Positions 1 to 21,041 of a DNA stretch of 64,000 nt are shown here, one piece after another. The translations under genes and the position numbers were made by a program. Each line of letters opens with the position of its first letter. The first letter of the stretch is position 1. A model generated the notes under the pieces. The model did not search any database and was not told the DNA's origin. It worked only from the letters and a program-made list of their open reading frames with translations. The DNA comes from a virus (taxonomy: Duplodnaviria; Caudoviricetes), in the IMG/VR virus record IMGVR_UViG_3300013901_000013, positions 25,592 to 89,591 of that record, one strand, 5' to 3'.

Positions 1-28
1 TCCTCTCTTTCTCTCTTTCTTTATACAT

Positions 29-57
29 AGTATAACACATAGGTAGCCACTTGTCAA
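29..57 (-). promoter_or_regulatory. SigA/sigma70-type promoter firing leftward out of the window
   Basis: Reverse strand TTGACA (57-52), 17-nt spacer, TATACT (34-29) with TG extended -10. Confidence 0.8.
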
Positions 58-155
58 GAGGTTTTTGTAATTTTTCTTTGTTAATTTCTTAACAAGCGAG
101 CTACTGGAAACCGCAGTTTTGGTTACGAACTTCGCTCCACGAGAGCATCAAGTCT

Positions 156-184
156 ATTATACCACAGATGTGCGGCGATGTCAA
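156..184 (-). promoter_or_regulatory. Perfect-consensus SigA-type promoter, leftward
   Basis: Reverse strand TTGACA (184-179), 17 nt, TATAAT (161-156). Confidence 0.85.
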
Positions 185-193
185 CAGGTAATA

Positions 194-292
194 TTGCACA
201 AAGATTGACTAGTATTTTTGTGCAAGGTGCTGAAAATATTCTTTGTGCAAAGTGACGAATTTTGGGAAGTGAATTGAAATATTTTTGTGCAA
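194..292. repeat. Four copies of TTTGTGCAA (operator-like array)
   Basis: 194-202 inverted; 217-225, 242-250 and 284-292 direct; each direct copy preceded by a TATT-containing flank; lies between divergent promoters. Confidence 0.7.
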
Positions 293-300
293 CTTTTTGC

Positions 301-330
301 TTGACAAATTGTTGTAGTTCGTGTTATACT
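301..330 (+). promoter_or_regulatory. SigA-type promoter, rightward
   Basis: TTGACA 301-306, 18-nt spacer, TG-n-TATACT 322-330. Confidence 0.75.
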
Positions 331-336
331 TGAAAT

Positions 337-392
337 TCGGGCCTAAGCCTGCGCTCACGGCCCGAGGATTTGACGAGCGCGTCATTACTTTT
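337..392 (+). ncRNA. Candidate small structured RNA (H-type pseudoknot)
   Basis: TCGGGCC 337-343 pairs with GGCCCGA 359-365; loop GCGCTC 351-356 pairs with GAGCGC 375-380; begins 7 nt after the -10 box; followed by a T-rich tract. Confidence 0.45.
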
Positions 393-518
393 TATGTATT
401 TTTCTCAGATAAAATTGAAATGAAAATGGACTTGAGGTTTCTTTTACCCGGGGGTATATTTCGTGAAAAAAATTTTTTTAAAATCGAAAATCGTTTTGCT
501 CTGGACAAAACTCTTTTC

Positions 519-573
519 AAAGCCATTTTGGATTTCAGATTACGAGAAAAAGCCATTTTGGATTTCAGATTAC
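519..573. repeat. Two 25-bp direct repeats (AAAGCCATTTTGGATTTCAGATTAC), 30-bp period
   Basis: Identical copies at 519-543 and 549-573. Confidence 0.9.
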
Positions 574-593
574 TGATTCTTAAATCCATTTTA

Positions 594-887
594 TCAATCT
601 TTGACAGGGCTTGGGTTAGTAGCTCCCTCAACGCACCTTAAATCTTCCACGTCTTTATCTAATTCATCAATATGTTCTTTAACCCACTCAGTTAATTTTA
701 AATATCCAGCATCATTAATCTCAGTAGAAAAACCCCTAAAATCAGTTCGCGCAGGAACACCCACATTAATATTTCCATCATCATCTTGTTCCACAAGCAA
801 GCACCATCCAAAAGCGTGTAAAAATAAATTTGTATACCAAAGCAATCCACTATCTTTAAATTCTTTCCAATCTTTAATTTCTACCAT
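594..887 (-). CDS. Hypothetical phage protein (97 aa)
   Basis: ORF with AAGGAG RBS and natural composition; last gene of the leftward operon. Confidence 0.75.
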   Translation of the reverse strand: MVEIKDWKEFKDSGLLWYTNLFLHAFGWCLLVEQDDDGNINVGVPARTDFRGFSTEINDAGYLKLTEWVKEHIDELDKDVEDLRCVEGATNPSPVKD

Positions 888-901
888 AATTATCTCCTTT
901 A

Positions 902-943
902 TAGGAAAAGGAGAAACGCATTCGCATCTCTCCCATTTTCCTT
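902..943 (-). terminator. Long hairpin immediately upstream of the 594-887 RBS (terminator or 5'-UTR structure)
   Basis: Imperfect inverted repeat AGGAAAA-GGAGA...TCTCC-TTTTCCT. Confidence 0.45.
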
Positions 944-1034
944 AATTTTTATATAACATTAAAGCATTTTCTTCGTTTTCGTTATCAGTAATTTCTCAGT
1001 AAAAATAACACAATAAGTGGAACAATAATTCCAA

Positions 1035-1262
1035 TCATTCTTTATTCTCCTTTACCTCAAATCCCAACAGTAACTTAAACATTTTTCTTTGTAACCAATT
1101 AAATTTCTTATTGCATGGTAAAATAAAAAATTCTCTTCCATTATCATCTACCAATACAATTTTATATGGTGTGGGTTTCGGTTGATATACCTTACAGCTG
1201 TACGGCGAACTCAGTATCTCCTGCGGTTTTACCTTTATTTTTTCTATTATCTCTTTTTGCAT
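1035..1262 (-). CDS. Hypothetical protein (75 aa)
   Basis: ORF within the co-oriented operon, GAGG upstream of ATG. Confidence 0.6.
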   Translation of the reverse strand: MQKEIIEKIKVKPQEILSSPYSCKVYQPKPTPYKIVLVDDNGREFFILPCNKKFNWLQRKMFKLLLGFEVKENKE

Positions 1263-1362
1263 CCTCAGCCTCTTTCTTCATCTGATAATCAAGTTTTGCC
1301 ATGCGGCTTCTCATAATCTGAAATTCTGTTCTTTTTGCTTTCTTACTTTTATTTTTGCCCAT
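1192..1362 (-). CDS. Small basic hypothetical protein (56 aa, MGKNKSKKAKRTEFQIMRSRMAKLDYQMKKEAEDAK...), below the ORF-track cutoff
   Basis: AAGGAG RBS before ATG at 1362; overlaps both neighbouring genes. Confidence 0.5.
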   Translation of the reverse strand: MGKNKSKKAKRTEFQIMRSRMAKLDYQMKKEAEDAKRDNRKNKGKTAGDTEFAVQL

Positions 1363-1600
1363 TCTTTTTATTCTCCTTAATTTCTTTTAATTCTTTTTCA
1401 ACTGACTCTAAAAGTCTAATTGCGGATTCATCATCCAAATAATCACTAACATTTATCGTATTTGGAATTGCAATAACATGTTTGTCAGGAAATACTTCTG
1501 AGACATGTTTAAATACTCCATAAACTTCATCTATATCATTTTCACCAAGAGTATAAGTGATTATTATAAAATCTTTTCTCTCTTCCGTCTTAATTTTCAT
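1349..1600 (-). CDS. Hypothetical protein (83 aa)
   Basis: ORF with ATGA-type 4-nt overlap with the upstream gene. Confidence 0.7.
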   Translation of the reverse strand: MKIKTEERKDFIIITYTLGENDIDEVYGVFKHVSEVFPDKHVIAIPNTINVSDYLDDESAIRLLESVEKELKEIKENKKNGQK

Positions 1601-1896
1601 CTTATAATCACCGTACCATGTTTTCCCTCTCTTTTCAGCTTCTCCAAAACTGGATGGCGCAAATTTTTTTCATTCATAAATACAATGGCGAAATCAAGTT
1701 CCTTAATATAATCATTAAATGCGCCGAAAAAATATCTTTTGCCGGAGCCGTTATTTTCTGCCCATTTATCTCCCAAAGAATTGGGAGAGCACACAATGTT
1801 AAATAAATATGTTCCCTTTATTTCAATAAGCTCATTCAACTTCTTATCTAAAAGGTCATAATCATCAAGTGTGCCTCCAATTATTCCTACATTCAT
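1597..1896 (-). CDS. Possible SLOG-superfamily (YspA/DUF2493-like) protein
   Basis: N-terminal hhIhGG strand followed by DYDLLDKKLNEL helix and GDKWAENNG motif; translationally coupled to the Thg1-like gene. Confidence 0.45.
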   Translation of the reverse strand: MNVGIIGGTLDDYDLLDKKLNELIEIKGTYLFNIVCSPNSLGDKWAENNGSGKRYFFGAFNDYIKELDFAIVFMNEKNLRHPVLEKLKREGKHGTVIIR

Positions 1897-2762
1897 GCGG
1901 TTGGCTCAATAAAAATTAATTTATCAATATAATCTCTATCTGCGCCTTTAAAAATAGGAATTTCGTAATCAATCTTCCATTTGCGGCGAACAATTATTTT
2001 TTCTCCAATTTGTTCTCCAAAATAAACATTTGGTTCTTTAATTGTCTCCCGCTCTTCAGTTTTAATACAACAACATCCTCTTTTTTCTGGAATTGAATAA
2101 TCATTCCAATTAATGCCTTTTTCCTGAAAAAGCATTTCCTGTATATCTTCACAAGTCTTGTGGTCAAGACGCCCCTGACTGAAGTTTGCCTGTCCCACCA
2201 TCTGAATACTGTTGCGCGTCGCGTCTAACTGCCGCCAATAAATAAGATTTGTTACTTCCTCTTTTGGAATATTAAAACATCTTGCATCAAAGCAAGCTCC
2301 CTGCCGCATGGCTCTTCTTAAATTATTAGCGTATTTTTCGCCATCAGTAGTAAGAATAAAACCTGTGCGGTCAAGGTATCCAATATGACTATTGGCATAC
2401 ATCTCAAATGCGCGGTTAAAAGCCATAGTTGCCATACTTGCGGCTACAGATGTCATCTTCTGGACCTGATAATCAAACCAGGCATCAGTACGAAAAGTCT
2501 GATAGTCTACAAGAATTAATGTAATTTCATCTGACTGAGTATATCCAAGAACACAGCCCTGAATATTCTCACAAAGATACTGCATTGTATCTGCCATTGA
2601 ATTCATAAGTACCTTATCAAAAGGCTTTTTAAATCCACGAGTAAATGTATGAAAAGCTTTTCCATCAATGCGGATAGCTACTGGCATGCGGCGAAGTAGC
2701 TGAGTTCTTGCAGGTTTTTCATAAAGCTCTTTCATTCTGATACCAAGTTCACTATTATCCAT
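1893..2762 (-). CDS. thg1: tRNA(His) guanylyltransferase Thg1-like protein (3'-5' polymerase)
   Basis: Hallmark motifs RIDGKAFHTFT, YTQSDEITL, FDARCF and WRQLDATRNSI. Confidence 0.93.
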   Translation of the reverse strand: MDNSELGIRMKELYEKPARTQLLRRMPVAIRIDGKAFHTFTRGFKKPFDKVLMNSMADTMQYLCENIQGCVLGYTQSDEITLILVDYQTFRTDAWFDYQVQKMTSVAASMATMAFNRAFEMYANSHIGYLDRTGFILTTDGEKYANNLRRAMRQGACFDARCFNIPKEEVTNLIYWRQLDATRNSIQMVGQANFSQGRLDHKTCEDIQEMLFQEKGINWNDYSIPEKRGCCCIKTEERETIKEPNVYFGEQIGEKIIVRRKWKIDYEIPIFKGADRDYIDKLIFIEPTA

Positions 2763-2804
2763 TTCTTTTTCCTTTTCTTTATTATTTATTTTATATATAT
2801 ATAT

Positions 2805-2833
2805 ATTATAATTTAATTTTTAAATTTTGTCCA
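2805..2833 (-). promoter_or_regulatory. Promoter upstream of the Thg1-like gene
   Basis: Reverse strand TGGACA (2833-2828), 17 nt, TATAAT (2810-2805). Confidence 0.6.
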
Positions 2834-3135
2834 TTTTGGTCTTTTACTGTAACTTCTGTGCGGTTTTCAGTAAGATTTGTTTCTTTTAAAAACCAATGCC
2901 ATACATAAGGTTTCTCAATGGTAGTTCCAATATATTGGGTATTTTGTAACACTTTTTCAGGAATCGGCTGTCCAGTTCCAATAGGGTTTACAAAAAAACT
3001 TCTTATCGGAGCAGAAGTATCAGTTAATGCCCAAAGATAAGTACGTCCTTGAATTGCTTTTACTTCAAGAAATTGTACAAGTGGTAGTTCAAGAACTCCA
3101 ATATCATTTAAACAATATTTAAGAATTCTTTTCAT
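2806..3135 (-). CDS. Hypothetical phage protein (about 109 aa; start reassigned to ATG 3135)
   Basis: GGAGG RBS precedes ATG at 3135 (MKRILKY...), not the track start at 3201. Confidence 0.7.
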   Translation of the reverse strand: MKRILKYCLNDIGVLELPLVQFLEVKAIQGRTYLWALTDTSAPIRSFFVNPIGTGQPIPEKVLQNTQYIGTTIEKPYVWHWFLKETNLTENRTEVTVKDQNGQNLKIKL

Positions 3136-3385
3136 TAATTTTATCCTCCAGCTCATCTGGAATATCTGCGCCGAGCTCTTCAAGTATTGATTTTGCAGCA
3201 AGATATTTTGGGTCTACACCATCTGCTACAGAAAGTGCGATATACATTTTTCCATCTAAATCAAAAGTAAAGAATTCAAGTTCTTCATTGTCACGCATAA
3301 ACATTCTATCTCTTAAACCTTTTGGAAGTGTAATTCTTCCAAGTGAATCTAATCTTCTTCTTGCATTTTCTGGTCTTAATAACAT
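3119..3385 (-). CDS. AbrB/MazE/SpoVT-family transcriptional regulator
   Basis: RRLDSLGRITLPKGLRDRM matches the AbrB swapped-hairpin signature RxhDxLGRhxhPxxhR. Confidence 0.85.
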   Translation of the reverse strand: MLLRPENARRRLDSLGRITLPKGLRDRMFMRDNEELEFFTFDLDGKMYIALSVADGVDPKYLAAKSILEELGADIPDELEDKINEKNS

Positions 3386-3757: not shown

Positions 3758-4816
3758 ATGATTAAATTAGATTACACTATACAATCTCCAGAAGAAAGAA
3801 ATGAGTTAGTAAAGAAAATTTTAGAAGAAACTCCTGAGCCTAGTGAGCGATATTTAGAAATTTTAGCAGACTATCTCGTTCTTTGTATGGAGAAACAAGA
3901 AAAGAAACAAAAACAAATCTTGACAGAAAATCGTATGACTACTGTTAATAAAAGAGAAACTTCTTATGAGGGTCTTGTTTCCCAATTAGAAAATGGCGAA
4001 GATGGTATCTATAATTTAATAAACGAAAGTAAAACTACAATATTTCAACCAAAAGTGACAATAACAAAAAAAGATTTAGAAGAAATACCTTATTTAAGAC
4101 AATTACGTGATGCTATTAATAACTGGGAAATGAAACTTAAAAAGGCGCAAGGACGTGATGCCTATATAATTAAAAAGGCGTTGATTGAAATGCGGAAAGA
4201 CCAATATGTAATAAAAAATGCTTACCGCAAACCAATCATATTCAATAAAATCAGTCGTTCTAATTTTGCTTCTAGATTAGTTGAAGGTTTTACTTTAGAC
4301 GAAAATAATTATATCGTCCCTAGTGGAGTTTCTTTATGCGACCCAGCAGTTTGTTCATTAATTCTTTGTAATTATTCTCAACTAAAAGAGGAAGGCTGGG
4401 GAAGATTTGAAGGTGACTTATGGTATCTTATGGAATCATTTGATAATGTCGCTACAGAAGCATTACAAGAATTTCCTTTATATGAAGAAATTGTTAAATG
4501 TAAAATAGATGGATTGCAGAATATAGAAATTCAAAAAATTTTAAAACAAAAATATAATACTACGCATAGTTTAGAATATATTTCGAGTTTGTGGCGTAAA
4601 AAAATTCCTAATCTTATCGCTTCTAAGGCAGAAGATATAGAATTGAGTTGGTATTTTTTGAATACTGAAAGAGGCAAATATAAAAGATGCAGTCGATGCG
4701 GGAAGATTAAACTCGCACATAATAAATACTTTAGCAAAAATAAAACTAGCAAAGATGGTTGGTATTCTATTTGCAAAGAATGTAGAAATAAAAAAAATAA
4801 GGACAAAAAGAAATAA
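3758..4816 (+). CDS. Putative DNA-binding regulator with HTH-like segment and C-terminal Zn finger
   Basis: IVKCKIDGLQNIEIQKIL...YISSLWRKKI resembles a sigma region 4/LuxR HTH; CSRC...CKEC Zn finger; first gene of the late module. Confidence 0.5.
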   Translation: MIKLDYTIQSPEERNELVKKILEETPEPSERYLEILADYLVLCMEKQEKKQKQILTENRMTTVNKRETSYEGLVSQLENGEDGIYNLINESKTTIFQPKVTITKKDLEEIPYLRQLRDAINNWEMKLKKAQGRDAYIIKKALIEMRKDQYVIKNAYRKPIIFNKISRSNFASRLVEGFTLDENNYIVPSGVSLCDPAVCSLILCNYSQLKEEGWGRFEGDLWYLMESFDNVATEALQEFPLYEEIVKCKIDGLQNIEIQKILKQKYNTTHSLEYISSLWRKKIPNLIASKAEDIELSWYFLNTERGKYKRCSRCGKIKLAHNKYFSKNKTSKDGWYSICKECRNKKNKDKKK

Positions 4817-6067: not shown

Positions 6068-8058
6068 ATGGCATTACAAGATTTATTAGCTCTTTCTCAG
6101 TCTCGAGATAAGATTGGCTTATCCGAGGAACGTGTCAATGCTATTATTCCAGTAGCAAGACAATACATAAGTTTCTGGAGAGAATATCCAGATATTTTCA
6201 TTGACTTCTTATTAAAAGACCGCAATCCGCAGAATTTTAAGTTTTTCTTTTATCAAAGAGTATTCTTGCGGATTTGTATGCGTCATCAATATGTGTACGC
6301 GGTTTTCCCACGTGCATATTCAAAATCTTTCTTATCTATGATGGTATTAATGTGCCGTTGCGTATTATATCCTGGATGTAAACTATTCGTTACATCTGGC
6401 GGTAAAGAGCAGGCTGCGGCAATTGTAAAAGAAAAAGTTCAAGAGATTTGTACACTGATACCCGCATTTAAAAATGAAATCGACTGGAATCGTGGTGTAA
6501 CTCTTGAAGGTAAAGATTATTGTAAGTATGTATTTAAAAATGGTTCATACTTTGATAATATTGCGGCTAGGGAGAGCTCCCGTGGTAAGCGTCGTCATGG
6601 TGGACTTATAGAGGAATGTGTAGGTGTTGATGGACAAATTTTAAGTGAAGTAATAATCCCTAGATTTTGGGGCCTAGCAGCGTGAGCTGTTAGCGCAAAC
6701 GAGGTGAACCCGTGGTAAAGGGGTGTCTATTTTAAGTAGGCTAACGGGGAAGAGTCAAGAATCCCGTGCCAAGCCTAATTATATTAATTAGGAAGGTGTA
6801 GAGACTATCGGTGATGAGTGTAGCCGAGTAGGAGAAGAGTTTACCATTTCTTCCAAGCGCCTCGCAACTATTAACTTAGTTGATGATATAGTCCAAGAGG
6901 AAATTGAATAATTTTCTCTTGACAATGAACATTTCCCGTATGTGTATGGATGGGTCAACCCATCCAGAGGAGCAGCTCAATAAAAGCCAGGTTTATATTA
7001 CAACCGCAGGTTATAAGAATACATATCCTTATGATAAGCTTATTCAGCTTTTAGTGTGGCAAATAGTTAAACCAGAAAAATCAATGATAATGGGTGGTAC
7101 TTATCGTATCCCTGTATTGGTTAAATTGCTTGATAAAAACTTTATCAAAGACTTAAAAATGGATGGTACTTTCAATGAAAGTTCCTTTGCTCGTGAATAT
7201 GAATCCGTTTGGTCTGGTACTATTGAAGATGCCTTCTTTAGTTCTGAAGCATTTGACCGCAATAGAATTCTTAAACAGCCAGAAAAAGAAGCATCTGGTC
7301 GTTCAAGCAAAAATGCCTATTACATACTATCTATGGATGTTGGTCGTAAAGGTTGTGATTCTGTAGTATGCGTAATTAAAGTAACTCCACGTTCTCAGGA
7401 TGTATCTATGAAGCAGTTAGTTAATATTTATACATTCCATGATGACCATTTTGAAGACCAAGCTATTAAAGTAAAACGTTTATTTTATAGATACAAAGCC
7501 CGCAGATTAGTTATTGATGCTAATGGTATTGGTATTGGACTTATGGATTATTTGGTCAAATCTCAAATTGACCCAGACACTAATGAATTTTTTGCGGATT
7601 TTGGTGTTTATAATGATGAAGAAAAATTTTATAAGAAGTTCCAAACTGTTGATTGTGAACAAGATGCGATATATATGATAAAAGCGAATGCACCTATAAA
7701 TACAGAAGCGCATGCTAATATGCAATCACAGCTTTCTTCTGGTAAAATTAAATTCCTTGAGGATGAACGTATTGCAAAAACTAAATTACTTGGTACTAAA
7801 ATTGGACAAACCATGACTCCAGAAAAACGTGCTGAATATTTAAGACCTTTCACATTAACTTCTATCCTTAAAGAAGAACTTATGAATCTTCGAGAAGAAA
7901 ATGAGGGTGTTAATATTATCCTTAAACAAGCTAATAGAGCAATCAAAAAGGATAAATTCTCAGCTCTTGAATATGGTTTATATTATATAAAAACAGAAGA
8001 AGATTCTAAAAAAAAGAAAAAACGTTTTGTTGCAAGCGAATGGAAATTCTTTAATTAA
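6068..8058 (+). CDS. terL: Terminase large subunit, spliced (exon 1 6068-6661, exon 2 6922-8058; 576 aa)
   Basis: Walker A-like PRAYSKS, Walker B-like GGLIEE and RNase H-like LSMDVG...KKDKFSA motifs; removing the intron gives a continuous EVIIP|TMNISR reading frame. Confidence 0.92.
6662..6921 (+). ncRNA. Group I self-splicing intron (IA-like, no internal ORF) in terL
   Basis: P1 with U6661-G6669 wobble; P2 with GTGA loop; P3 CGAGGTG/CGCCTCG; P4 ACGGG/CCCGT; P6a; P7 GACTA/TAGTC; extra helices between P7 and P3'; P8; P9; terminal G6921. Confidence 0.92.
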
Positions 8059-11742: not shown

Positions 11743-12522
11743 ATGCTTAGTGATTTCTTAAAGAAAAATATTAAGAGCCAGGCATCATATGTTGAGTATG
11801 GTTATGGACAAGTAGAACCAAACCATTTATCTGCTCAAAGAACTGCACAGATTTATGCTCAACTACCTGCTGATAGTAAAATTAATGTTCTTGAGCAAGG
11901 TCAGTTTGTAAAATATGATTATGCTTCAGGACTGGTTAATTTCACTGGTAAAGGTGAATGGATGCTTGTTTATAATGAAACAAAATTATATAGAGAACAT
12001 CAGATTGATTGCGAATTCGCAATGAGAAAAGATGATTATCAGGCACGTATCTATAGTCCATTTGGATATGGAGTAGATAAAGATGGTAATCCAACAGCTG
12101 GTGGTGATGAAGCTTTCGATAGACAGTCTCGTTACTACAACGGTGTAGATGCCGAAGGAAAAGATTCTATTAAGATTGGTTCTAAAACATATAAATATGA
12201 TGATGTTACTGCCGGACCAGATATGTATGAGATTCATTACAATGAAGACCCATTCCATATCGTAGGACCTTACAAAGAAAAGAAAATGCCAGAGGGAACT
12301 ACAATGGTACCTCGTGTTTTCAAAACAAATGTAGGTGACATCTTTACTACTAATACTATTAATGAAACTACTCTTACTGTTGGAGATATTCTTACACCTC
12401 AGGCTAAAGATGGTATTCTTGCTAAAACAGGTGCTGAAGATGCTGATATGCAGTGGCAAGTAGTTAAAGTTTATACAATGCCAGACCACCAAAAAGGTGT
12501 TAAGGTAATGCGTATTAAATAA
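11743..12522 (+). CDS. Probable head decoration/minor capsid protein
   Basis: Immediately upstream of the MCP; beta-rich sequence. Confidence 0.5.
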   Translation: MLSDFLKKNIKSQASYVEYGYGQVEPNHLSAQRTAQIYAQLPADSKINVLEQGQFVKYDYASGLVNFTGKGEWMLVYNETKLYREHQIDCEFAMRKDDYQARIYSPFGYGVDKDGNPTAGGDEAFDRQSRYYNGVDAEGKDSIKIGSKTYKYDDVTAGPDMYEIHYNEDPFHIVGPYKEKKMPEGTTMVPRVFKTNVGDIFTTNTINETTLTVGDILTPQAKDGILAKTGAEDADMQWQVVKVYTMPDHQKGVKVMRIK

Positions 12523-12540
12523 TAAGGGGGGAAGAAGATA

Positions 12541-13647
12541 ATGTTAGATAGACAAAATCTAGTTCAGTTAATGAAAACAGTTGCAAAGGCTGACCCTTCC
12601 GCTCCTACAGCTTATAGCTTTGGTGGACAGAACCTTAGTTATGACGCATTAAATGAAACTCTTCGTAGAGAGCTTAATGAGTTAGCTGGTACATACTCAC
12701 TGTATCGTGAAAATAAAAATACAATTTTCTCAATTATTGAGGAAACATTAGATGAAGTTCTTCCAAAGAAAGTGGTAGAACAGTATAATCAGTTTGCAGA
12801 AACCCGCACATTTGCGCAGGGAGATAAAATTCTTTTCAGACGTAAACTTACTTCTAATAATCGTGCTAAACAGTTTATTACAAGAGTAGGTCTTGCAGGT
12901 ATTTACGAAGTATTTAAACTTGGTAAAAACGAAGAGAGCTTTGAAGTTCGTACATCTGCTATTGGTGGAGCAGCTCAGATTGGATTTGAGGAGTTCCTTG
13001 ATGGTCGTGTAGATTTCGCTGAAGTAACAAGAATTGTTATGGAAGGTATGGACGAATTAATCTATAAAGAGGTTGGAGCTGCACTTAAAGCTTCTATCAA
13101 CCAGTTACCTCCTGCAAATAGAGTTGCCGCAACAGGATTTGATGAAGCAGCTTTTGATAAACTTCTTACAATCGCTTCTGCTTATGGAACACCTACTATT
13201 TATTGTACATACGAATTTGCAGTAAATATGATTCCTAAAGAAGCTTGGAGATATACAGAAGCCATGAAAGATGAGCTGTGGAGAACAGGACGTCTTGCTT
13301 CTTATAAAGGTCACAAAGTTATCATCCTTGAGCAGGGATTTGAGGATGAAACTAATAGCCGCAAAGTAATCGACCCAGGTTATGCTTGGATTATTCCTAG
13401 TGGTGCTGACAGTAAACCTGTTAAGATTGCATTTGAAGGAAATACTATTGTTGATGAGTACACAAATGCAGACCGTTCAAGAGAGATTCAGGTTTATAAG
13501 AAAGTCGGAGTCGTTTGTATGTTAACAAATGATATCTGCGCTTATGTTGATACTTCACTTATGGGCCAGATGGATACATGGAAACTTGATGGCATCACAG
13601 GTAAAGTTATTACATTAGATGGCCGCAAAGACGGTACAATCGCGTAA
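12541..13647 (+). CDS. Probable major capsid protein
   Basis: 368 aa, canonical position, strong RBS, followed by a terminator. Confidence 0.75.
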   Translation: MLDRQNLVQLMKTVAKADPSAPTAYSFGGQNLSYDALNETLRRELNELAGTYSLYRENKNTIFSIIEETLDEVLPKKVVEQYNQFAETRTFAQGDKILFRRKLTSNNRAKQFITRVGLAGIYEVFKLGKNEESFEVRTSAIGGAAQIGFEEFLDGRVDFAEVTRIVMEGMDELIYKEVGAALKASINQLPPANRVAATGFDEAAFDKLLTIASAYGTPTIYCTYEFAVNMIPKEAWRYTEAMKDELWRTGRLASYKGHKVIILEQGFEDETNSRKVIDPGYAWIIPSGADSKPVKIAFEGNTIVDEYTNADRSREIQVYKKVGVVCMLTNDICAYVDTSLMGQMDTWKLDGITGKVITLDGRKDGTIA

Positions 13648-13678
13648 TCTATACTCGGTAATTTAATATAAAAAACTG

Positions 13679-13714
13679 GGGGAGAGGGAGAAGCTTCCCT
13701 CTCCCCTTATTTTT
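13679..13714 (+). terminator. Rho-independent terminator
   Basis: GGGGAGAGGGA/TCCCTCTCCCC 11-bp stem plus T tract. Confidence 0.85.
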
Positions 13715-13738
13715 GTTTGAGATAAAGGAGATAATATA

Positions 13739-14320
13739 ATGGAAAGTTCAAAAATTCTTAAAGTTAAAAATAGAAGTGCAAGTTTAGCTGTATATTCAAT
13801 TCCGGAGATTAATATTCGTAGGGAATTTGCTCCTGGAGAGACAAAAAATATCACATATGGTGAGTTAGAGAAACTTTCTTATCAGCCTGGTGGTAGAGCA
13901 ATTATGCAGAATTTCTTGCAGATTATTGACCCTGAGGCTACAGGAGATTTAGGTATTAATCGTGAACCAGAATATGATTTAAGTGAACAGCAGATTGTAG
14001 ATTTAATGAATAATGGTTCTCTTGATGCTTTTCTTGATTGTCTTGATTTTGCACCAGTAGGTGTAATTGATTTAATCAAGAAATTTGCAGTTTCACTACC
14101 TCTGAATGATATTAATAAGAGAGATGCTCTGAAAAAGAAAACAGGCTTCGATGTAACAGTAGCTCTTGCTAATATGCAGAAAGAAAAAGAAGATGCGGAT
14201 GCTCCAGCAGTAGAAACTAAAGAGCGTCGTGTAAAAACTGAATCCGCACCAGAAGGTCGTAGAACAACACCTAAATATAATGTAGTCCAGACTACAACAA
14301 CAGCAAAATTAGATAAATAA
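13739..14320 (+). CDS. Hypothetical head/neck-region protein
   Basis: ORF with RBS directly after the MCP. Confidence 0.6.
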   Translation: MESSKILKVKNRSASLAVYSIPEINIRREFAPGETKNITYGELEKLSYQPGGRAIMQNFLQIIDPEATGDLGINREPEYDLSEQQIVDLMNNGSLDAFLDCLDFAPVGVIDLIKKFAVSLPLNDINKRDALKKKTGFDVTVALANMQKEKEDADAPAVETKERRVKTESAPEGRRTTPKYNVVQTTTTAKLDK

Positions 14321-14336
14321 TCAGGAGGATTATATA

Positions 14337-14954
14337 ATGGAAGGTCAGAGAAAAGGTACACTTTTTTCTGCTATTTATAATCGTTTTCTTGGTAAAATTA
14401 CAGACGATATGTATATAGAATTAACCCCAGAAGACACCATTAAAGATTTGCAAAATCTTTTGATTGATGCAATTCCTGGATTTGAATTTCCAAGACAAGA
14501 TATCTCCAACTATACTATACAAGTAGTACAGATTAAAGAAAATGAAGTCCTTGATGGGGATTTCATTATTGGTGTCGTATGGGATGGGTTAGAAGAAAAT
14601 ATCGTCGAAACTCCAGACGTATTAGTTGACCGTTCTTGTTTTAATGCAAATCTTACCTCTGAAGAAATAAATATATTGGCTTTGTTAATGAAACAAAGCT
14701 GGGTTCAGAGACAAGTTAATTCAATAGAAAATACCAGAATGAAATATTATGGAAGTGATTTTAAAATGACTTCCCAAGCAAACCATTTATCTAAATTAAT
14801 GAATTTGCTTGAAACCGCAAAAACGGAGTCATTTCATATGCAGCGTTTATATAAACGCAGAAGATTAGATGATAAAGGTTATTATCATTCTAATTGGACT
14901 GTATTGCGGGAGAGGAGTGCACTAGATGCCAACGGGTACCATCCTCCTCGATAA
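14337..14954 (+). CDS. Probable head-tail adaptor
   Basis: Position; helical sequence with EEINILALLMKQSW motif. Confidence 0.5.
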   Translation: MEGQRKGTLFSAIYNRFLGKITDDMYIELTPEDTIKDLQNLLIDAIPGFEFPRQDISNYTIQVVQIKENEVLDGDFIIGVVWDGLEENIVETPDVLVDRSCFNANLTSEEINILALLMKQSWVQRQVNSIENTRMKYYGSDFKMTSQANHLSKLMNLLETAKTESFHMQRLYKRRRLDDKGYYHSNWTVLRERSALDANGYHPPR

Positions 14955-15237
14955 ATATAATATTGGTTTTTCTAATGAAGATATAATTAAAAATGTTCAA
15001 CGTTTAACTAATCAGTTATGGAAATTAATTCCAATGCGTGAACATAAAGAGGATTGGTCAAAACAACTTGATACTGTTATTATAGAAATTGCTGGGCTTA
15101 ATGAAATTTTCATTGGGCCTACTTTTTTACAATTACTTAGTAAATTAGAGGGCTTGCGAGTTAAGGATACAACATTTGAGCTATACCGTAAGACTATTTT
15201 TGAATGCATAAGTCTTTTACAGGAGCTAAACGGATGA
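14926..15237 (+). CDS. Hypothetical neck-region protein (103 aa)
   Basis: ORF with GAGG RBS overlapping its neighbours. Confidence 0.6.
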   Translation: MPTGTILLDKYNIGFSNEDIIKNVQRLTNQLWKLIPMREHKEDWSKQLDTVIIEIAGLNEIFIGPTFLQLLSKLEGLRVKDTTFELYRKTIFECISLLQELNG

Positions 15238-16358
15238 CAAGTTATAAGGAAGACAGCAACCCCTCTTTAAATTTAATGCTAAGACGTTTAGGAGTTTTTA
15301 ATAATTCAAAGCCAACCAGCGCACCTCTAGAGCGTCCAAACCCGCTAAAAATGCGAGCACAAGATAATATTGAAGGTGTAACAAATATCGCTGGTCGAAT
15401 GAAAGTAAATGGCGGTTATTATCAACAAGAAAGAATGATTTTTGACAAACGCCGCAGTTTGGAAAGAGCTTTATTGTATTCTTATCAAAGTGCGAATGTT
15501 AAAAAACTCACTCAAGACTTGGAAGATTTAAAAGAAGAAGGAATAGTTGAAACTAGAGTTTTAATTAATCCTGATAAAACAAAACAAAGCTATGATGATA
15601 AAATTTTATCTGGATATTATGAGGATGGTTGGAAACCAGGAGATGTATTTGAATGGACTGGTACTCAAACTCATTGGTTAATATATTTACAAGATACAAC
15701 TGAATTAGCCTATTTTAGAGGAAGTATAAGACGTTGTAGTTATACTGTTAATTGGGAAGATGAAGATGGATTACATTCTAGTTATATGGCGGTTCAAGGT
15801 CCAGTAGAAACTAAAATTGATTATATCCAAAAGCACGAAATTAGTATTGATAGACCAAACTTTTCACTTGATATATTGATGCCCGCAAATGAAGCTACAG
15901 TTAAATATTTCCGCAGATATGCTAAATTTTATTTAAAGGGACTAATTGCGGGTTCACCTGATGTCTGTTGGAGAACAGAAGCAGTGGACTGGATTAGTAC
16001 TCCTGGAATAATTAGAATTCATGCAGTTGAGTATTATATTAATAAAGAAGAAGATGATGTTGAAAAAGGATTAGTTGGGAGTTTAATAACTAAACCAGAA
16101 AATCCAAATTCAGAAAACATCGAACAAATGATAGAGGGACCAGCTTTTATCAAACCTAAGATTGAATATGAATTTACTTGGACTGGTACTTCTGGAAAAC
16201 AATGGTCTGTAGATAAACGAAAATATCCAGTTAAACTAATAATAGATGATGAAGACCCTAAGAAATGTAAGGTTAAATGGATTGCTCCTATTAGTGGTCA
16301 ATTTGAGCTTACATGCGGCAATATAACAAAAACTATTATCGTAGAGTCTTTATTTTAA
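15234..16358 (+). CDS. Probable head-closure/neck protein with C-terminal Ig-like domain (start reassigned to ATG 15234)
   Basis: AGGAG RBS before 15234; beta-rich C-terminus; position. Confidence 0.5.
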   Translation: MTSYKEDSNPSLNLMLRRLGVFNNSKPTSAPLERPNPLKMRAQDNIEGVTNIAGRMKVNGGYYQQERMIFDKRRSLERALLYSYQSANVKKLTQDLEDLKEEGIVETRVLINPDKTKQSYDDKILSGYYEDGWKPGDVFEWTGTQTHWLIYLQDTTELAYFRGSIRRCSYTVNWEDEDGLHSSYMAVQGPVETKIDYIQKHEISIDRPNFSLDILMPANEATVKYFRRYAKFYLKGLIAGSPDVCWRTEAVDWISTPGIIRIHAVEYYINKEEDDVEKGLVGSLITKPENPNSENIEQMIEGPAFIKPKIEYEFTWTGTSGKQWSVDKRKYPVKLIIDDEDPKKCKVKWIAPISGQFELTCGNITKTIIVESLF

Positions 16359-16376
16359 GAGTTAAAGGAGATTTGG

Positions 16377-16961
16377 TTGATGAAAGTAGAAAATTATAAA
16401 CCGACTAAATCAAGTTTTCTATCTATCGAAAAAGATATGTCTATAATTATAGATAGTATTTTTTCTAACAAAACTTTATTAAAGTTACTTTATTATGCGT
16501 CTAAAGATGCTCTTGAAAAGCCAGCTTTAACTGAAGAACAAAAATTAGAAATGGTAGATAAAAATATAAAAATTAGACCTAAAGTTTATGTCGACAAAGA
16601 TGTAAAAACTTATATTATAATTAGAATCAGAGATTTTGTTCCTAGCTCAAATCCAGAATACAGAAGTTGTATTATTGAATTTGATATTTGCTGTCATGTG
16701 GAGCAATGGGCAATGAAGGATTTTAAAATACGTCCTTATAGAATTGCCGCAGAATTAGACTCAATGTTTACAGATAAACACCTCTCTGGAATAGGAACAT
16801 TAGATTTTACTGGAACTAGTGATTTGAATTTAACTGATGAATATTGCGGTTTATGTGTACAATTTTTAGCTTATCATGGCGAGGAAGATAAAAATAATGT
16901 ACAGCCTAAAGAAAATCCAGCGCATGTTCAAGATTTCAAAGATGTTATAGAGGACTATTAA
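16377..16961 (+). CDS. Probable tail terminator/completion protein
   Basis: Position before the tail tube gene; IEFDICCH...RPYRIAAELDSMF pattern. Confidence 0.45.
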   Translation: MMKVENYKPTKSSFLSIEKDMSIIIDSIFSNKTLLKLLYYASKDALEKPALTEEQKLEMVDKNIKIRPKVYVDKDVKTYIIIRIRDFVPSSNPEYRSCIIEFDICCHVEQWAMKDFKIRPYRIAAELDSMFTDKHLSGIGTLDFTGTSDLNLTDEYCGLCVQFLAYHGEEDKNNVQPKENPAHVQDFKDVIEDY

Positions 16962-16962
16962 T

Positions 16963-17688
16963 ATGGATTTACGTTTGGCTCTTATGGCGGGAACCGATAT
17001 TCCAGTGCCGGAATGCCAAGCTATTTTACATCAACCGACTATAAAAGAAATTGCTTTTATTGGAAACGAAGATTTTTTTATTGGAGTACAAACCCTTTGT
17101 CTACATAAAAGCATGTTTGTAGAGGACAAAAAAGTTCTAGAAGAAATAAATAACTTTCAGATATTTATGACAGTAATGAATGATAAAGAATGCGCTGATA
17201 AAAAACGTGATGTTATCCAAATTTTAACTTTACTTTTTCCAGGGGCGCAAATATTATTCACTCCACGCTCATTAGTTATTAATGGTCTACCTTCTGGTAG
17301 TATTACTATAGATGCAACTAATTTTGAACCGCTTCAAGAGGCTTTAAGATTAATTTTCTGTAGTAAGAATGGACCGATGGACCAACAAGCCTTCAATCCA
17401 GCAGATGATAAAGCTAGGGAAATCGCTCAAAAACTAATGCGTGGTCGCCAACGTGTCGCCGCACAAAAAGGAGAATCAAATTCCTGTGTATTTACACAAT
17501 ACGTTTCTATATTAACTGTAGGACTAAGAATACCTCCGCAGGATTTAATAAATTGTACAATGTATCAATTATATGATTTAATGGAACGTTATTCATTGTA
17601 TAATGCCTGGGATTTAGATGTGCGGGTAAGGCTTGCCGGAGGTAAGCCAGATTCTCAACCTGACAATTGGATGAAGAATATCCATTGA
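16963..17688 (+). CDS. Hypothetical tail-region protein
   Basis: ORF coupled to its neighbours in the morphogenesis module. Confidence 0.55.
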   Translation: MDLRLALMAGTDIPVPECQAILHQPTIKEIAFIGNEDFFIGVQTLCLHKSMFVEDKKVLEEINNFQIFMTVMNDKECADKKRDVIQILTLLFPGAQILFTPRSLVINGLPSGSITIDATNFEPLQEALRLIFCSKNGPMDQQAFNPADDKAREIAQKLMRGRQRVAAQKGESNSCVFTQYVSILTVGLRIPPQDLINCTMYQLYDLMERYSLYNAWDLDVRVRLAGGKPDSQPDNWMKNIH

Positions 17689-17763
17689 GCGAGTTATTTA
17701 TTTATTTTCTTTTAAATAAATAATCTATTTATATTTATGAAATTTATAAGGAGGAAATAGCTT

Positions 17764-18765
17764 ATGCGATTCGGTGTCCGCGAAATTTGTGACGTTGTAT
17801 TAAAGGCTAAATCAGCACAAAAAATCGGTAATAAAATCTTTTATGCTAATGAGCCTGTAATTTATTTTGATACACTGAAAACTTCTAGCCTTGAAGGTGC
17901 AGCTACTACTGTATATGCACAAGGTGGTAGAGGTAATGCTCGTTTAGTAGCATGGGAAGGTGAAAGAACAGTAACCTTCACAATGGAAGATGCTCTTATT
18001 TCTCCAGAAGGATTCATGATTCTTTCTGGTGCAGGACTTATCAATTCTTCTGAAAAGAAACCTATTTATCAGCATGTAACAGAAACTGTTGATGCTACTG
18101 GTGTTAAGATTTCTGGTGAAGATGAAGAATTAGAGTATCAGATTGAGCTTAGTAAGAAACCTTATCTGCCAACAGGTAAAAATGATAACTTTGCTTATGT
18201 AATGTTTATGAAAAATGGTGAAATTGTATCTGAGCCATATATTCCAATACATGAGGAAGTTGACAAAGATGATGAGGGCAATTATTTATTGAGAGTTAAA
18301 GCTCATAAAGCATACAGCGGAGTATCAGCTGGTGAAGATAATGCTCATCAGTATACTCTTGATAAATCAGAGTGGAATGCAACTACATTCGACAGTGTTT
18401 TAGTAGATTATTATGTAGAGCATGCAGGTTCTGATGCACAGCAGATTGAAATTACCGCAGATAAATTTGGTGGCAACTATTATCTTGAAGCTTCTACATT
18501 ATTCCGTGATACAAACGGTGTAGATATGCCTGCTGAATTTATTATTCCTAACTGCAAGATTCAGTCTAACTTCACATTTACAATGGCATCTTCTGGAGAC
18601 CCAAGTACATTTACATTTACTATGGATGCATTCCCAGATTATACAAGATTTGACCACAGTAAGAAAGTTCTTGCTGCAATTCAGATTATTAAAGATGCTG
18701 GAAGCCAAGACTTACATCGTCATAGTACTGCTCACGAAGCAGCTCATGATTCATTGTCTTGGTAA
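17764..18765 (+). CDS. Probable major tail tube protein
   Basis: Beta-rich 333 aa with GG.GN..L..W...TVTFT.EDAL and terminal FTFTMDA strands; strong RBS; terminator follows. Confidence 0.7.
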   Translation: MRFGVREICDVVLKAKSAQKIGNKIFYANEPVIYFDTLKTSSLEGAATTVYAQGGRGNARLVAWEGERTVTFTMEDALISPEGFMILSGAGLINSSEKKPIYQHVTETVDATGVKISGEDEELEYQIELSKKPYLPTGKNDNFAYVMFMKNGEIVSEPYIPIHEEVDKDDEGNYLLRVKAHKAYSGVSAGEDNAHQYTLDKSEWNATTFDSVLVDYYVEHAGSDAQQIEITADKFGGNYYLEASTLFRDTNGVDMPAEFIIPNCKIQSNFTFTMASSGDPSTFTFTMDAFPDYTRFDHSKKVLAAIQIIKDAGSQDLHRHSTAHEAAHDSLSW

Positions 18766-18781
18766 TTAAATAATGATTTCT

Positions 18782-18815
18782 AAGGGGAGAGATTTTATAT
18801 CTCTCCCCTTATTTT
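18782..18815 (+). terminator. Rho-independent terminator
   Basis: AAGGGGAGAGAT/ATCTCTCCCCTT stem plus T tract. Confidence 0.85.
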
Positions 18816-18834
18816 GCGTTAAAGGAGAATATAT

Positions 18835-20310
18835 ATGGCGGAAATAAGTTTTGACGAATATTTTAATTTTCCAGATACTTATAAACAAAATTTAATAGAC
18901 AATACTAAGATTATCAAAGAAAAAATTTCTTCACTAAATAGAATTAATTCTGACGAATATACAAAATTAGAAGATTATTTAAATAGTATTTTTTATCCTT
19001 CAGAAGATAATGCCGATGGAATAACTTATAGTAAACAGTTTATGGATAGGTTGCGGTCTTTATATGAGGCTAAAACTGATAAAATTATTACAAGTGATAT
19101 TGGTGATTTAACTTATAAGGCTTTAAATAAAAAACCAACTTTAGATAGAAGTACTAATGTACATAGAGCCTCTTTAAGAACTATGAAAACTCAATATGAT
19201 GCAATAGTTAATATAATTAATAATTTAGCTAATACAGAGAATGCTAAAGAGATTCAGGCAGTTTTAGATGAAGTTAATAAACAATATGGTAACGTTTTAG
19301 CTATCATTGAAGATGTATTAAAAACCTATGAAGATGAGGGTGAAACTACCCAAATTGGTAAAGGTATTGTCAAAAAACACGGCGGAGATTTTGAAAAAAT
19401 AAATGAAGCACAGAACGGATTGAGAGCTTTATATAATACTTTTAATAATGCTGGATTAATTATACTTCCTATAGACTATGGAGATTTTCTTGAATATGGT
19501 TTAGGTTTACTTTCAAATGAAATGGCTGAAGTAACAGATAATTTTGAAGATGAAGTTATTGAATATATGCAAGATAAAATTGTATTGGGCGGTCAAAATG
19601 TTGCACGTGGCGGTGGCTTAGTAGATGTAGATATGTCTATTAAATCTGACTTTAAGAAGAAAACAAAAAAAACTGAAAGCGGCGCAACTAAAATATTTTG
19701 GCAATATCAAAATATTACTCTTAGTTATGACCCATCTAATGTGACAGTTTTAAATACTGGCGTTAAAAAGCAGGGTAAAGTTGATGTAATGCTGACATTA
19801 CCAGATGCAATGGGTGGTGAAAAATTTAGGATTTCCGCAAAAAACTGGAAAACGATAGATGAATTAAGAAATTTAGGTTCTACTTCACTTCTGGATGCTA
19901 TTCATAGAAATGTAGGAGATTCAGGTTTAGATTATTACATGCTATCAATGCAAAATCCTCAAGAAGTTTATATGCAAGCTGCGGATGAGTTAGCTAAGAT
20001 TTGTGCCTTCGCGGATATTGCTATGGGTTTATCTCAAAAAGAAGGATATGCCGATACTTTAGTTATTAATGATAGAAGTGCAAAACATTTATATGTTCGT
20101 AATATTCCACAAATGATATTAGATGCAGTTAATACCAACTTATCCAAATTAGCATTAAAAGGGTATGATGTATCTTCAATAAGTAATGATGCAGAAAACG
20201 CACGAAAAGTTGCTATGAAGTTAAAAGAAGGACGCATTGAAGAGTATTTCAGAATCTTTAGAAGTCAATTAAGAAGTATTGAAGTATCGGTCCAGTTTTT
20301 AGCTCCGTAA
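18835..20310 (+). CDS. Hypothetical protein with possible PD-(D/E)xK nuclease domain
   Basis: GKVDV...FRISAKNW motif in the C-terminal third. Confidence 0.4.
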   Translation: MAEISFDEYFNFPDTYKQNLIDNTKIIKEKISSLNRINSDEYTKLEDYLNSIFYPSEDNADGITYSKQFMDRLRSLYEAKTDKIITSDIGDLTYKALNKKPTLDRSTNVHRASLRTMKTQYDAIVNIINNLANTENAKEIQAVLDEVNKQYGNVLAIIEDVLKTYEDEGETTQIGKGIVKKHGGDFEKINEAQNGLRALYNTFNNAGLIILPIDYGDFLEYGLGLLSNEMAEVTDNFEDEVIEYMQDKIVLGGQNVARGGGLVDVDMSIKSDFKKKTKKTESGATKIFWQYQNITLSYDPSNVTVLNTGVKKQGKVDVMLTLPDAMGGEKFRISAKNWKTIDELRNLGSTSLLDAIHRNVGDSGLDYYMLSMQNPQEVYMQAADELAKICAFADIAMGLSQKEGYADTLVINDRSAKHLYVRNIPQMILDAVNTNLSKLALKGYDVSSISNDAENARKVAMKLKEGRIEEYFRIFRSQLRSIEVSVQFLAP

Positions 20311-20319
20311 TTTAAAAAT

Positions 20320-20348
20320 TTGACTTTGTTATTTTTTTCCGGTACAAT
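20320..20348 (+). promoter_or_regulatory. SigA-type internal promoter
   Basis: TTGACT-17-TACAAT. Confidence 0.75.
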
Positions 20349-20387
20349 TAACATATAAAACAAGTAAAAAAGGAGAAAAAGGTCAGA

Positions 20388-20915
20388 ATGGCTAAAGTAA
20401 CTTTTAACAAATTAAATTTAACTAAAAATACAGAAACAAATATTATTAATATAAATGATAATGAGATAGAAGTTAGACAATATTTACCAGTAGAAGAAAA
20501 ACTTGAATTAATTTCTTATATTGTAAATATGGCGCATGATGAAGATTATAATTTCTCAAATCCTGTAAAAGTTGAAGTATTTGCGGGAATTGGTATTGTT
20601 AAATATTATACTAATATAACATTTACTGAAAAGCAACTTGAAAATCCAGCAAAGATTTATGATTTATTAAATTCAAACAATGTTATTAATAATGTTATCG
20701 CGGCAATACCAAGCAATGAATATGATGAGATTCGCGCAGGAATTGAGGAAACTATTAAATCTATTTATCAATATCAAAATAGCGCGCTTGGAATTCTTGA
20801 CACTATTGGTCAGGATTATTCGGATTTAAATCTGGAGGCTGAAAGTATTAATGAAAAACTTAGTAATCCAGATAATATGAAATTGCTTCGTGATGTGTTA
20901 GCCAAATTAGGTTAA
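20388..20915 (+). CDS. Probable tail assembly chaperone
   Basis: 175 aa, directly upstream of the tape measure gene. Confidence 0.55.
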   Translation: MAKVTFNKLNLTKNTETNIININDNEIEVRQYLPVEEKLELISYIVNMAHDEDYNFSNPVKVEVFAGIGIVKYYTNITFTEKQLENPAKIYDLLNSNNVINNVIAAIPSNEYDEIRAGIEETIKSIYQYQNSALGILDTIGQDYSDLNLEAESINEKLSNPDNMKLLRDVLAKLG

Positions 20916-20951
20916 TTATACTACTTTAGAAATTAAATCTAATAGGAGTTA

Positions 20952-20988
20952 AGGGAAGAGTTATTTATTAACTCTTCCCTCTTTTTTT
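20952..20988 (+). terminator. Rho-independent terminator
   Basis: AGGGAAGAGTTA/TAACTCTTCCCT stem plus T tract. Confidence 0.85.
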
Positions 20989-21041
20989 ATTTTGCGCAAG
21001 ATAAGAAGAGAAATTAACGGAGAGAAAGGAGTAAAATAAAA

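Follow-up and report, generated by a model that had tools for sequence, protein, structure and literature searches.

What purpose does a strong predicted promoter serve when it lies in a non-coding gap, points at an operon approaching from the other side and is followed by a GC-rich hairpin? This question is raised by positions 301–392 of the window, i.e. the whole 64,000-nucleotide stretch of DNA analysed here, which comprises bases 25592–89591 of the 89.6-kb virus record IMGVR_UViG_3300013901_000013 (G000). The record has a G+C content of 33% and is about 46% complete according to CheckV. IMG/VR contains more than 170 close relatives of its capsid protein; complete related genomes measure about 155–200 kb, most of them near 195 kb, and several end in direct terminal repeats. 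The nearest named phages, all distant, are Phass-1, Enterococcus EF1-type phages and SPbeta-like phages. The 25-kb arm to the left of the window is made up of small leftward genes, nearly each of them with its own consensus sigma-A-type promoter, and dozens of ordinary promoters in this early arm run directly into a ribosome-binding site and ATG.

Positions 1–593 of the window are non-coding; besides the rightward promoter P_F they contain strong leftward promoters at 184..156 and 57..29 as well as four TTTGTGCAA boxes. Genes at 594–3201 run leftward, toward the 301–392 element, and a P_F transcript would indeed face them, as a first, sequence-only reading had stated. That reading had also noticed that no credible ORF follows the promoter, and no conserved ORF was found: the 106-aa GTG frame at 321–641 was rejected as coding sequence, being broken by indels of 2 nt and 22 nt in the close relative L001. 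A scan of the window for tRNA and tmRNA genes returned none. The features on which the argument turns are, in window coordinates:

156..205, minus strand: leftward promoter at 184..156 (12/12 match) with an inverted TTTGTGCAA box at 197–205; back-to-back partner of P_F, corresponding to P_L of the canonical module described below
284..292, plus strand: TTTGTGCAA box, 8 nt upstream of the −35 hexamer, common to the cassette promoters
301..330, plus strand: promoter P_F, with −35 TTGACA at 301–306, TG at 322–323 and −10 TATACT at 325–330
331..337, plus strand: spacer TGAAATT (family consensus GGAAATT; A9, A10 and T12 are invariant in alignment A3)
337..365, plus strand: GC-rich stem-loop (hairpin 1) of the minimum-free-energy fold, with lower stem 337–343/359–365, a small internal loop, apical pairs 346–348/353–355 and tetraloop 349–352 (CUGC)
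350..381, plus strand: proposed pseudoknot helix, 350–356 with 375–381, in the window sequence only
371..393, plus strand: terminator-like hairpin 2, TGACG-AGCG-CGTCA at 371–384 followed by TTACTTTTT at 385–393, flagged by the terminator scan
493..518, either strand: AU-rich hairpin GTTTTG/CAAAAC (493–498/506–511), T-rich on both flanks, conserved in the relatives L001 and L005 (−3.5 kcal/mol)

Several further features lie close by. Between the promoters at 184..156 and 57..29 the minus strand holds an ORF-less leader of about 90 nt (window 60–150) that is richer in G+C and conserved in L001 and L005, with hairpins GCUC-UCGUG-GAGC and UUGUUAA-GAAA-UUAACAA; it may be transcribed into a further non-coding RNA or form a structured leader. 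An A7T7 palindrome (aaaaaaattttttt) is located at 465–478 in the non-coding gap, a region conserved with small changes in the same two relatives. Just past the stop of a 97-aa leftward gene there are two copies of a 23-bp direct repeat, AGCCATTTTGGATTTCAGATTAC, with a period of 30 bp (521–573); L001 has a single degenerate copy. L005 (IMGVR_UViG_3300045988_131786) carries an insertion of about 800 bp at 480–1300, between the cassette and the 97-aa gene, with a leftward, cysteine-rich small ORF. Farther to the left, the minus strand of G000 at 12,000–25,600 (L116:500–14100) contains dozens of TTGACA-17-TGnTATAAT promoters with one small early gene each. Many of these promoters have their −35 hexamer in the loop of a short hairpin (e.g. 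ggggcTTGACAaaccgcaagcccc), a composite reminiscent of the PeSLs introduced below.

The 301–392 element has many counterparts. A BLAST search with window positions 280–420 against 50 related records matched 30, mostly over the promoter and the start of the hairpin. The matches share one plan, consisting of a TTTGTGCAA box, TTGACA-17/18-TATAAT, a GGAAATT spacer and a GC-rich hairpin, the arms of which vary in sequence from phage to phage and among the copies of one genome. A covariance model (R1; '−10 box, 7–8 nt spacer, hairpin') built from a MAFFT alignment of 17 copies detected between one and eight copies per record in 20 of 20 related IMG/VR records. Within each of these 20 records all copies are on one strand and 1–4 kb apart. 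In the three records whose genes were mapped this strand opposes the early genes, and the copies of relatives with mapped genes sit at operon boundaries; some complete genomes possess six to eight cassette promoters. G000 itself has about eight units, at 12298(−), 12895(−), 15437(+), 18686(+)/18780(−), 20822(+), 24360(+) and 25892(+), the last of which is the element at window 301–392. The single, isolated small RNA of the sequence-only reading thus turned out to be one truncated copy of a multi-copy early-region cassette. In the complete relatives G009 and G020 cassette copies are located within 1–6 kb of a contig end. This position, together with the terminal repeats, fits a terminal early region of the 'host-takeover' type.

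Model R1 found no cassette in the cultured or described relatives Phass-1, Enterococcus phage EF1 and Bacillus phage Kirov. Likewise, a nucleotide search of window positions 1–1000 against a phage collection gave no match, and viral contigs did not contain the exact 29-mer of hairpin 1. Among the public sequencing runs listed, none is recorded as RNA. Rfam models returned nothing over 301–392 when window positions 1–3000 were searched, even at E values up to 10; searching 37.5 kb of cassette-rich loci yielded only matches below the gathering score (STnc230, 36 versus 50 bits), which fell on the terminator segment. That the sequence-only reading could match the element to no familiar riboswitch or ribozyme family is in line with these searches, which produced no match at gathering score, and our comparisons support the view of a promoter-driven, ORF-less structured element that has no Rfam family.

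P_F scores 11/12 in a promoter scan and combines an extended −10 region with an 18-nt spacer between the hexamers. Near-consensus hexamers are kept in all nine relatives of the window's subclade, contigs that come from IMG/VR (three) and from metagenomes (six), as well as in 41 distinct cassettes of other records, in agreement with the strong promoter recognized originally. The −10 box and the stem are separated by 7 nt in 29 of 41 cassettes and by 8 nt in another nine. Because of this fixed spacing, transcription is predicted to start at about 335–338, at the foot of the hairpin. Other hairpin-type promoters of the same genome, and also of relatives, have a TTTGTGCAA box 8–9 nt upstream of the −35 hexamer. 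A palindrome, TTTGTGCAAATTGCACAAA, which is a perfect inverted pair of the box, is present twice in the same genome, in both cases adjoining a terminator (L116:~4030–4060 and L116:~7290–7320). The box looks like an operator half-site. In the window, four such boxes lie between the back-to-back promoters (194–292).

The helix that had been proposed to pair 337–343 with 359–365 (stem 1) is present in the window as seven perfect base pairs with a possible additional U336–G366 wobble. Folding of 337–395 gives −21.2 kcal/mol (z = −2.47), a value equalled or exceeded by 4 of 200 shuffled sequences, and it is the comparison with relatives, not the window sequence alone, that lifts stem 1 above chance. 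Pairing of the 8-bp stem amounts to 91% in the MAFFT alignment of 17 copies, as compared with 29–42% when the partners are slid against each other. With 48 distinct copies, 92.2% of the cells are paired versus 29–40% in slid registers, in a model alignment that is fitted to the structure and leans toward it and with which the independent MAFFT result agrees; none of 500 shuffles matched the observed score. All eight stem pairs change on both sides (65 cells in the 48 copies), and the first helix is thus maintained in homologues. Taken together, these comparisons establish a repeated promoter-hairpin cassette whose sequence bears the marks of selection, including a fixed spacing.

The geometry of the hairpin is nearly constant, with 38 of 41 copies having 8-bp arms around an 11-nt apex. 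Within the apex of the 48 copies, position 3 is C in 41, position 7 is C in 40, position 8 is G in all 48 and position 9 is a pyrimidine in 46. The resulting motif, C-RNNC-G with an invariant G, corresponds to a C-G pair closing an RNNC tetraloop, and the pair beneath it covaries (AU 14, GC 10, GU 8). In the window, C348–G353 closes the tetraloop CUGC, whose first base, C349, replaces the usual R and is the one deviation from the motif. The basal pair C338–G364 is lost through C338A in six of the nine subclade relatives. G-U and A-C cells are about equally rare in the lower stem (9 and 8, respectively, of 383), and these wobble counts give no sign of selection specifically on the strand of the P_F RNA. 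Sense and antisense fold energies are alike over 34 copies.

The arrangement of the cassette was read in two relatives, with 19 kb mapped in each, and at 18686/18780 in the window's genome. From left to right this canonical module comprises P_L, a box, P_F, the hairpin, a leftward promoter P_R, a second box, a bidirectional terminator and the end of the upstream leftward operon. The TTTGTGCAA box marks the module promoters P_F, P_R and P_L and is absent from ordinary early promoters, a pattern that fits an operator for a dimeric regulator of one promoter class. The −35 hexamers of the leftward promoter and P_F are 117 bp apart in the window, with two extra boxes between them, versus 59–60 bp in relatives. 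In 28 of the 48 distinct copies the hairpin is followed, after 2–4 nt, by the −10 box of P_R, so that P_F would fire head-on into P_R. The −35 hexamers of these two promoters are separated by 93–96 bp in 11 modules, and the −10 boxes by about 45 bp. Transcripts from P_R should start inside the 5′ arm of the hairpin, and the overlap of the two RNAs should essentially equal the hairpin. In the relatives examined, canonical bidirectional terminators are found about 65–85 nt past the hairpin, and a strong canonical terminator of the upstream operon about 45–50 bp before P_R; these calls were made with RNAfold and a terminator scan, a stricter finder having missed terminators flanked by A/T. The P_F transcript of the canonical module is thus predicted to be some 110–120 nt long (about 111–118 nt by the positions of the scan), to have the complete hairpin at its 5′ terminus and to stop at the terminator.

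The window departs from this plan. No reverse promoter occurs within 75 nt of its hairpin, and P_R is absent from nine of nine subclade contigs, in which hairpin 1 is followed by GGATT, the 5-bp hairpin 2 and a T tract. By this comparison the window's subclade has lost P_R. The segment 371–392 that stands in its place is part of a structure proposed in the sequence-only reading, an H-type pseudoknot alternating with a terminator-like hairpin and acting as a conformational switch, a ribozyme or a nuclease-resistant RNA. Positions 350–356 (TGCGCTC) can indeed form six Watson-Crick pairs and one G-U pair with 375–381 (GAGCGCG), overlapping hairpin 2. However, a complementarity of at least seven pairs between the loop and downstream sequence arises in 9–10% of shuffles. 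Moreover, the central pair requires C378, a position occupied by A in all nine subclade relatives, and the loop partner CGCTC has become CGTCT in these relatives with no compensating change. As these differences extend to all nine, the 7-pair pseudoknot exists only in the window sequence; the second helix was not kept in the covariation check, and we judge it not to be a real feature. As regards hairpin 2, the TGACG/CGTCA hairpin and the T tract described originally are there and pass a lax terminator scan, the hairpin being weak (−4.3 kcal/mol) and the tail interrupted (UUACUUUUU). G372A, again uncompensated, reduces hairpin 2 to −0.5 kcal/mol in three of the nine relatives (L087, L152 and L154), and the segment is missing from cassettes outside the subclade. 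With the competing hairpin confined to the subclade and broken in three of its nine contigs, and with the Rfam search empty, the switch reading is already contradicted by the comparative data, and we give it almost no credence.

How the P_F RNA of the subclade would end can be predicted from the same region. It probably ends after about 55–60 nt at hairpin 2 and its T tract (371–393), or else farther on near 493–518. The AU-rich hairpin at the latter site is possibly a weak bidirectional terminator which would serve both as a back-stop for the P_F RNA and as the end of the incoming leftward operon.

Among characterized systems, those with convergent promoters come closest. Lambda OOP RNA is a cis-antisense RNA of the face-to-face promoter type. 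In Shigella, RnaG and icsA combine convergent promoters with an antisense RNA, and both interference and attenuation are established (PMC2879508). The pR/pL switch of coliphage 186, mentioned in PMC3675496, is another case of face-to-face promoters. The cassette, as predicted from its sequence, resembles such units in having a strong promoter directed toward a nearby convergent one, transcripts overlapping at their 5′ ends and a short, terminated, non-coding stem-loop RNA, and the action to be expected is the same, namely transcriptional interference plus antisense pairing. It differs from them in that its promoters are much closer together, with one shared GC-rich hairpin filling the overlap, and in that it is repeated up to eight times per genome, operon by operon, with a stem that differs in each copy. 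The window copy is further set apart by having no convergent partner; a promoter overlapping the P_F transcript is recognizable by sequence in the 28 of 48 family copies mentioned above.

A second group of relatives by design are the promoter-early stem-loops (PeSLs) of T4-type phages, characterized as composite promoter-terminator motifs (PMC4122927, which cites Arbiol et al. 2010, PMC2839356). Like PeSLs, the cassette is a short repeated unit of a host-type early promoter and a stem-loop, scattered over a plastic early region of small genes. By contrast, the stem-loop of a PeSL is the terminator of the preceding gene and precedes a promoter co-oriented with the genes, whereas the cassette hairpin follows, at 7–8 nt, a promoter aimed against the genes, and its stems are not conserved between copies. 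The aprE leader is a Firmicute example of a 5′-terminal stem-loop which stabilizes the mRNA downstream of it (PMC3997798). The 7–8 nt spacing would likewise put a stable hairpin only a few nucleotides from where the P_F RNA is predicted to begin, but no coding sequence follows the cassette hairpin. In our comparison the cassette is thus nearest to face-to-face cis-antisense units and to PeSLs, and a member of neither class.

Taking into account these data, we propose, tentatively and with slightly less than even confidence, that window 301–392 is a truncated ('orphan') copy of a cis-antisense, transcription-interference cassette. The copies, their geometry, the covariation of the stem and the convergent promoter sequences are observed; from these we infer that P_F fires, where its RNA starts and ends, and each of the functional steps that follow. 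P_F, aimed against the early genes in the three records with mapped genes, would yield a non-coding RNA with the hairpin at its 5′ terminus. In the commonest form of the cassette this RNA would cross the convergent early promoter P_R and end at the bidirectional intrinsic terminator, and we therefore read the cassette as a cis-antisense, interference unit that would oppose P_R through interference, antisense pairing or both. The terminal hairpin may protect the 5′ end of the RNA, and its conserved loop may pair with the complementary P_R leader or be bound by a protein. As the window copy has no P_R, it has no target in cis; it may be vestigial or may be doing something else. Given that the wobble pairs of the lower stem carry no strand signal, the hairpin may also work on both strands, insulating or terminating transcription, or function as DNA. 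In view of its fixed geometry and of the asymmetry and conservation of its apex, it may in turn bind a protein.

How well do these other roles account for the data? That the hairpin is a strand-neutral insulator or terminator between the promoters, stopping polymerases from either side, with P_R transcripts starting in the 5′ arm and escaping and the P_F RNA a by-product, seems to us unlikely, if worth serious attention. The equal rarity of G-U and A-C cells suggests selection on both strands, and the similar fold energies of sense and antisense strand and the location of the P_R −10 box merely 2–4 nt from the stem point the same way. In addition, two copies were flagged as terminator-like on the leftward strand, where the hairpin is followed by AATTT, and several copies with a promoter 2–3 nt from the hairpin have a true T tract after it (TTTTTGTGCAA). 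However, a second terminator seems unnecessary where the upstream operon has already been ended by a strong one about 45–50 bp before P_R. The tails after the hairpin are poor in U (CCGAAUUAUA, AAUUUCC), and insulation leaves unexplained both the asymmetric conserved apex and the near-consensus promoter situated 7–8 nt from the hairpin in 38 of 41 cassettes. The apex is better accommodated if the hairpin RNA acts in trans, as an abundant, 5′-protected small RNA whose apex is recognized by a protein of phage or host, with the RNA serving as decoy, regulator or polymerase-binding element, and whose many promoters provide dosage. This comes close to the decoy or antitoxin-like RNA that the sequence-only reading had suggested. 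We regard it as distinctly unlikely. It would agree with the constant 27-nt geometry and the C-RNNC-G-Y apex with its invariant G on a drifting stem, with the six to eight dedicated strong promoters of some complete genomes, with the retention of orphan copies such as the window's, in which the promoter is intact, and with the bias at the apical pair (G-U 8 versus A-C 4). On the other hand, known families give no match, the window apex is off motif at C349, and descent from one duplicated cassette could equally account for a constant geometry. A more far-reaching reading, which we likewise consider unlikely while taking it seriously, holds that the 27-nt stem-loop is an undescribed phage RNA motif that acts through a specific partner, for instance as a decoy or ligand of a protein of phage or host, or by making host RNA polymerase park or pause on the early promoter next to it. 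Produced from up to eight dedicated promoters per genome, which point against the early genes where these were mapped, it would provide modular timing of early operons in large Firmicute-type gut phages.

Alternatively, the cassette might act as DNA, be it as a PeSL-like recombination point that shuffles early genes or as a site of the cruciform or origin type. Repeats about every 1–4 kb at operon boundaries of a region dense in small, individually promoted genes would suit this role, as would the insertion of about 800 bp that directly adjoins the cassette in one relative and the lack of strand bias in the wobble pairs; modular shuffling is mediated by PeSLs (PMC4122927). However, the arms differ among the copies of one genome, which leaves less homology, not more, and covariation means selection for pairing, which homologous recombination does not need. 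The hairpin, moreover, lies between convergent promoters, where, by the established twin-domain model, positive supercoiling prevails and should oppose cruciform extrusion, and the multiple copies speak against a single origin. A DNA-level function thus strikes us as improbable. Other candidates were discarded or set apart on direct comparison. A CRISPR-repeat mimic (solitary repeat or RNA anti-CRISPR) was rejected since the stems differ among copies and only the structure and a 4–5 nt apex motif are kept, and a tRNA-like minihelix with 3′ CCA was rejected since the CCA that follows many of the hairpins is the complement of the GG following the reverse −10 box. Promoters of the N4 type have a hairpin with a 5–7 bp stem and a 3-nt loop upstream of the start, whereas the cassette hairpin is larger and lies downstream of a sigma-A promoter; no virion RNA polymerase domain was found in the four giant ORFs of the window, which look like tape-measure and tail proteins, in this record of about 46% completeness.

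With respect to the element as originally described, the value of our analysis is mainly corrective, in that the element is not unique and its pseudoknot switch not a real feature. Beyond this, it adds an RNA motif that is supported by covariation and contained in no database. If the proposed cis-antisense, interference role is true, a large and widespread clade of gut phages would control each of its early operons by one compact module, in which an operator box, two leftward promoters and a third that opposes them are combined with a shared hairpin and a bidirectional terminator. Each copy has a stem sequence of its own, possibly to keep the copies orthogonal, and the family would then represent a clear natural case of repeated convergent-promoter control.
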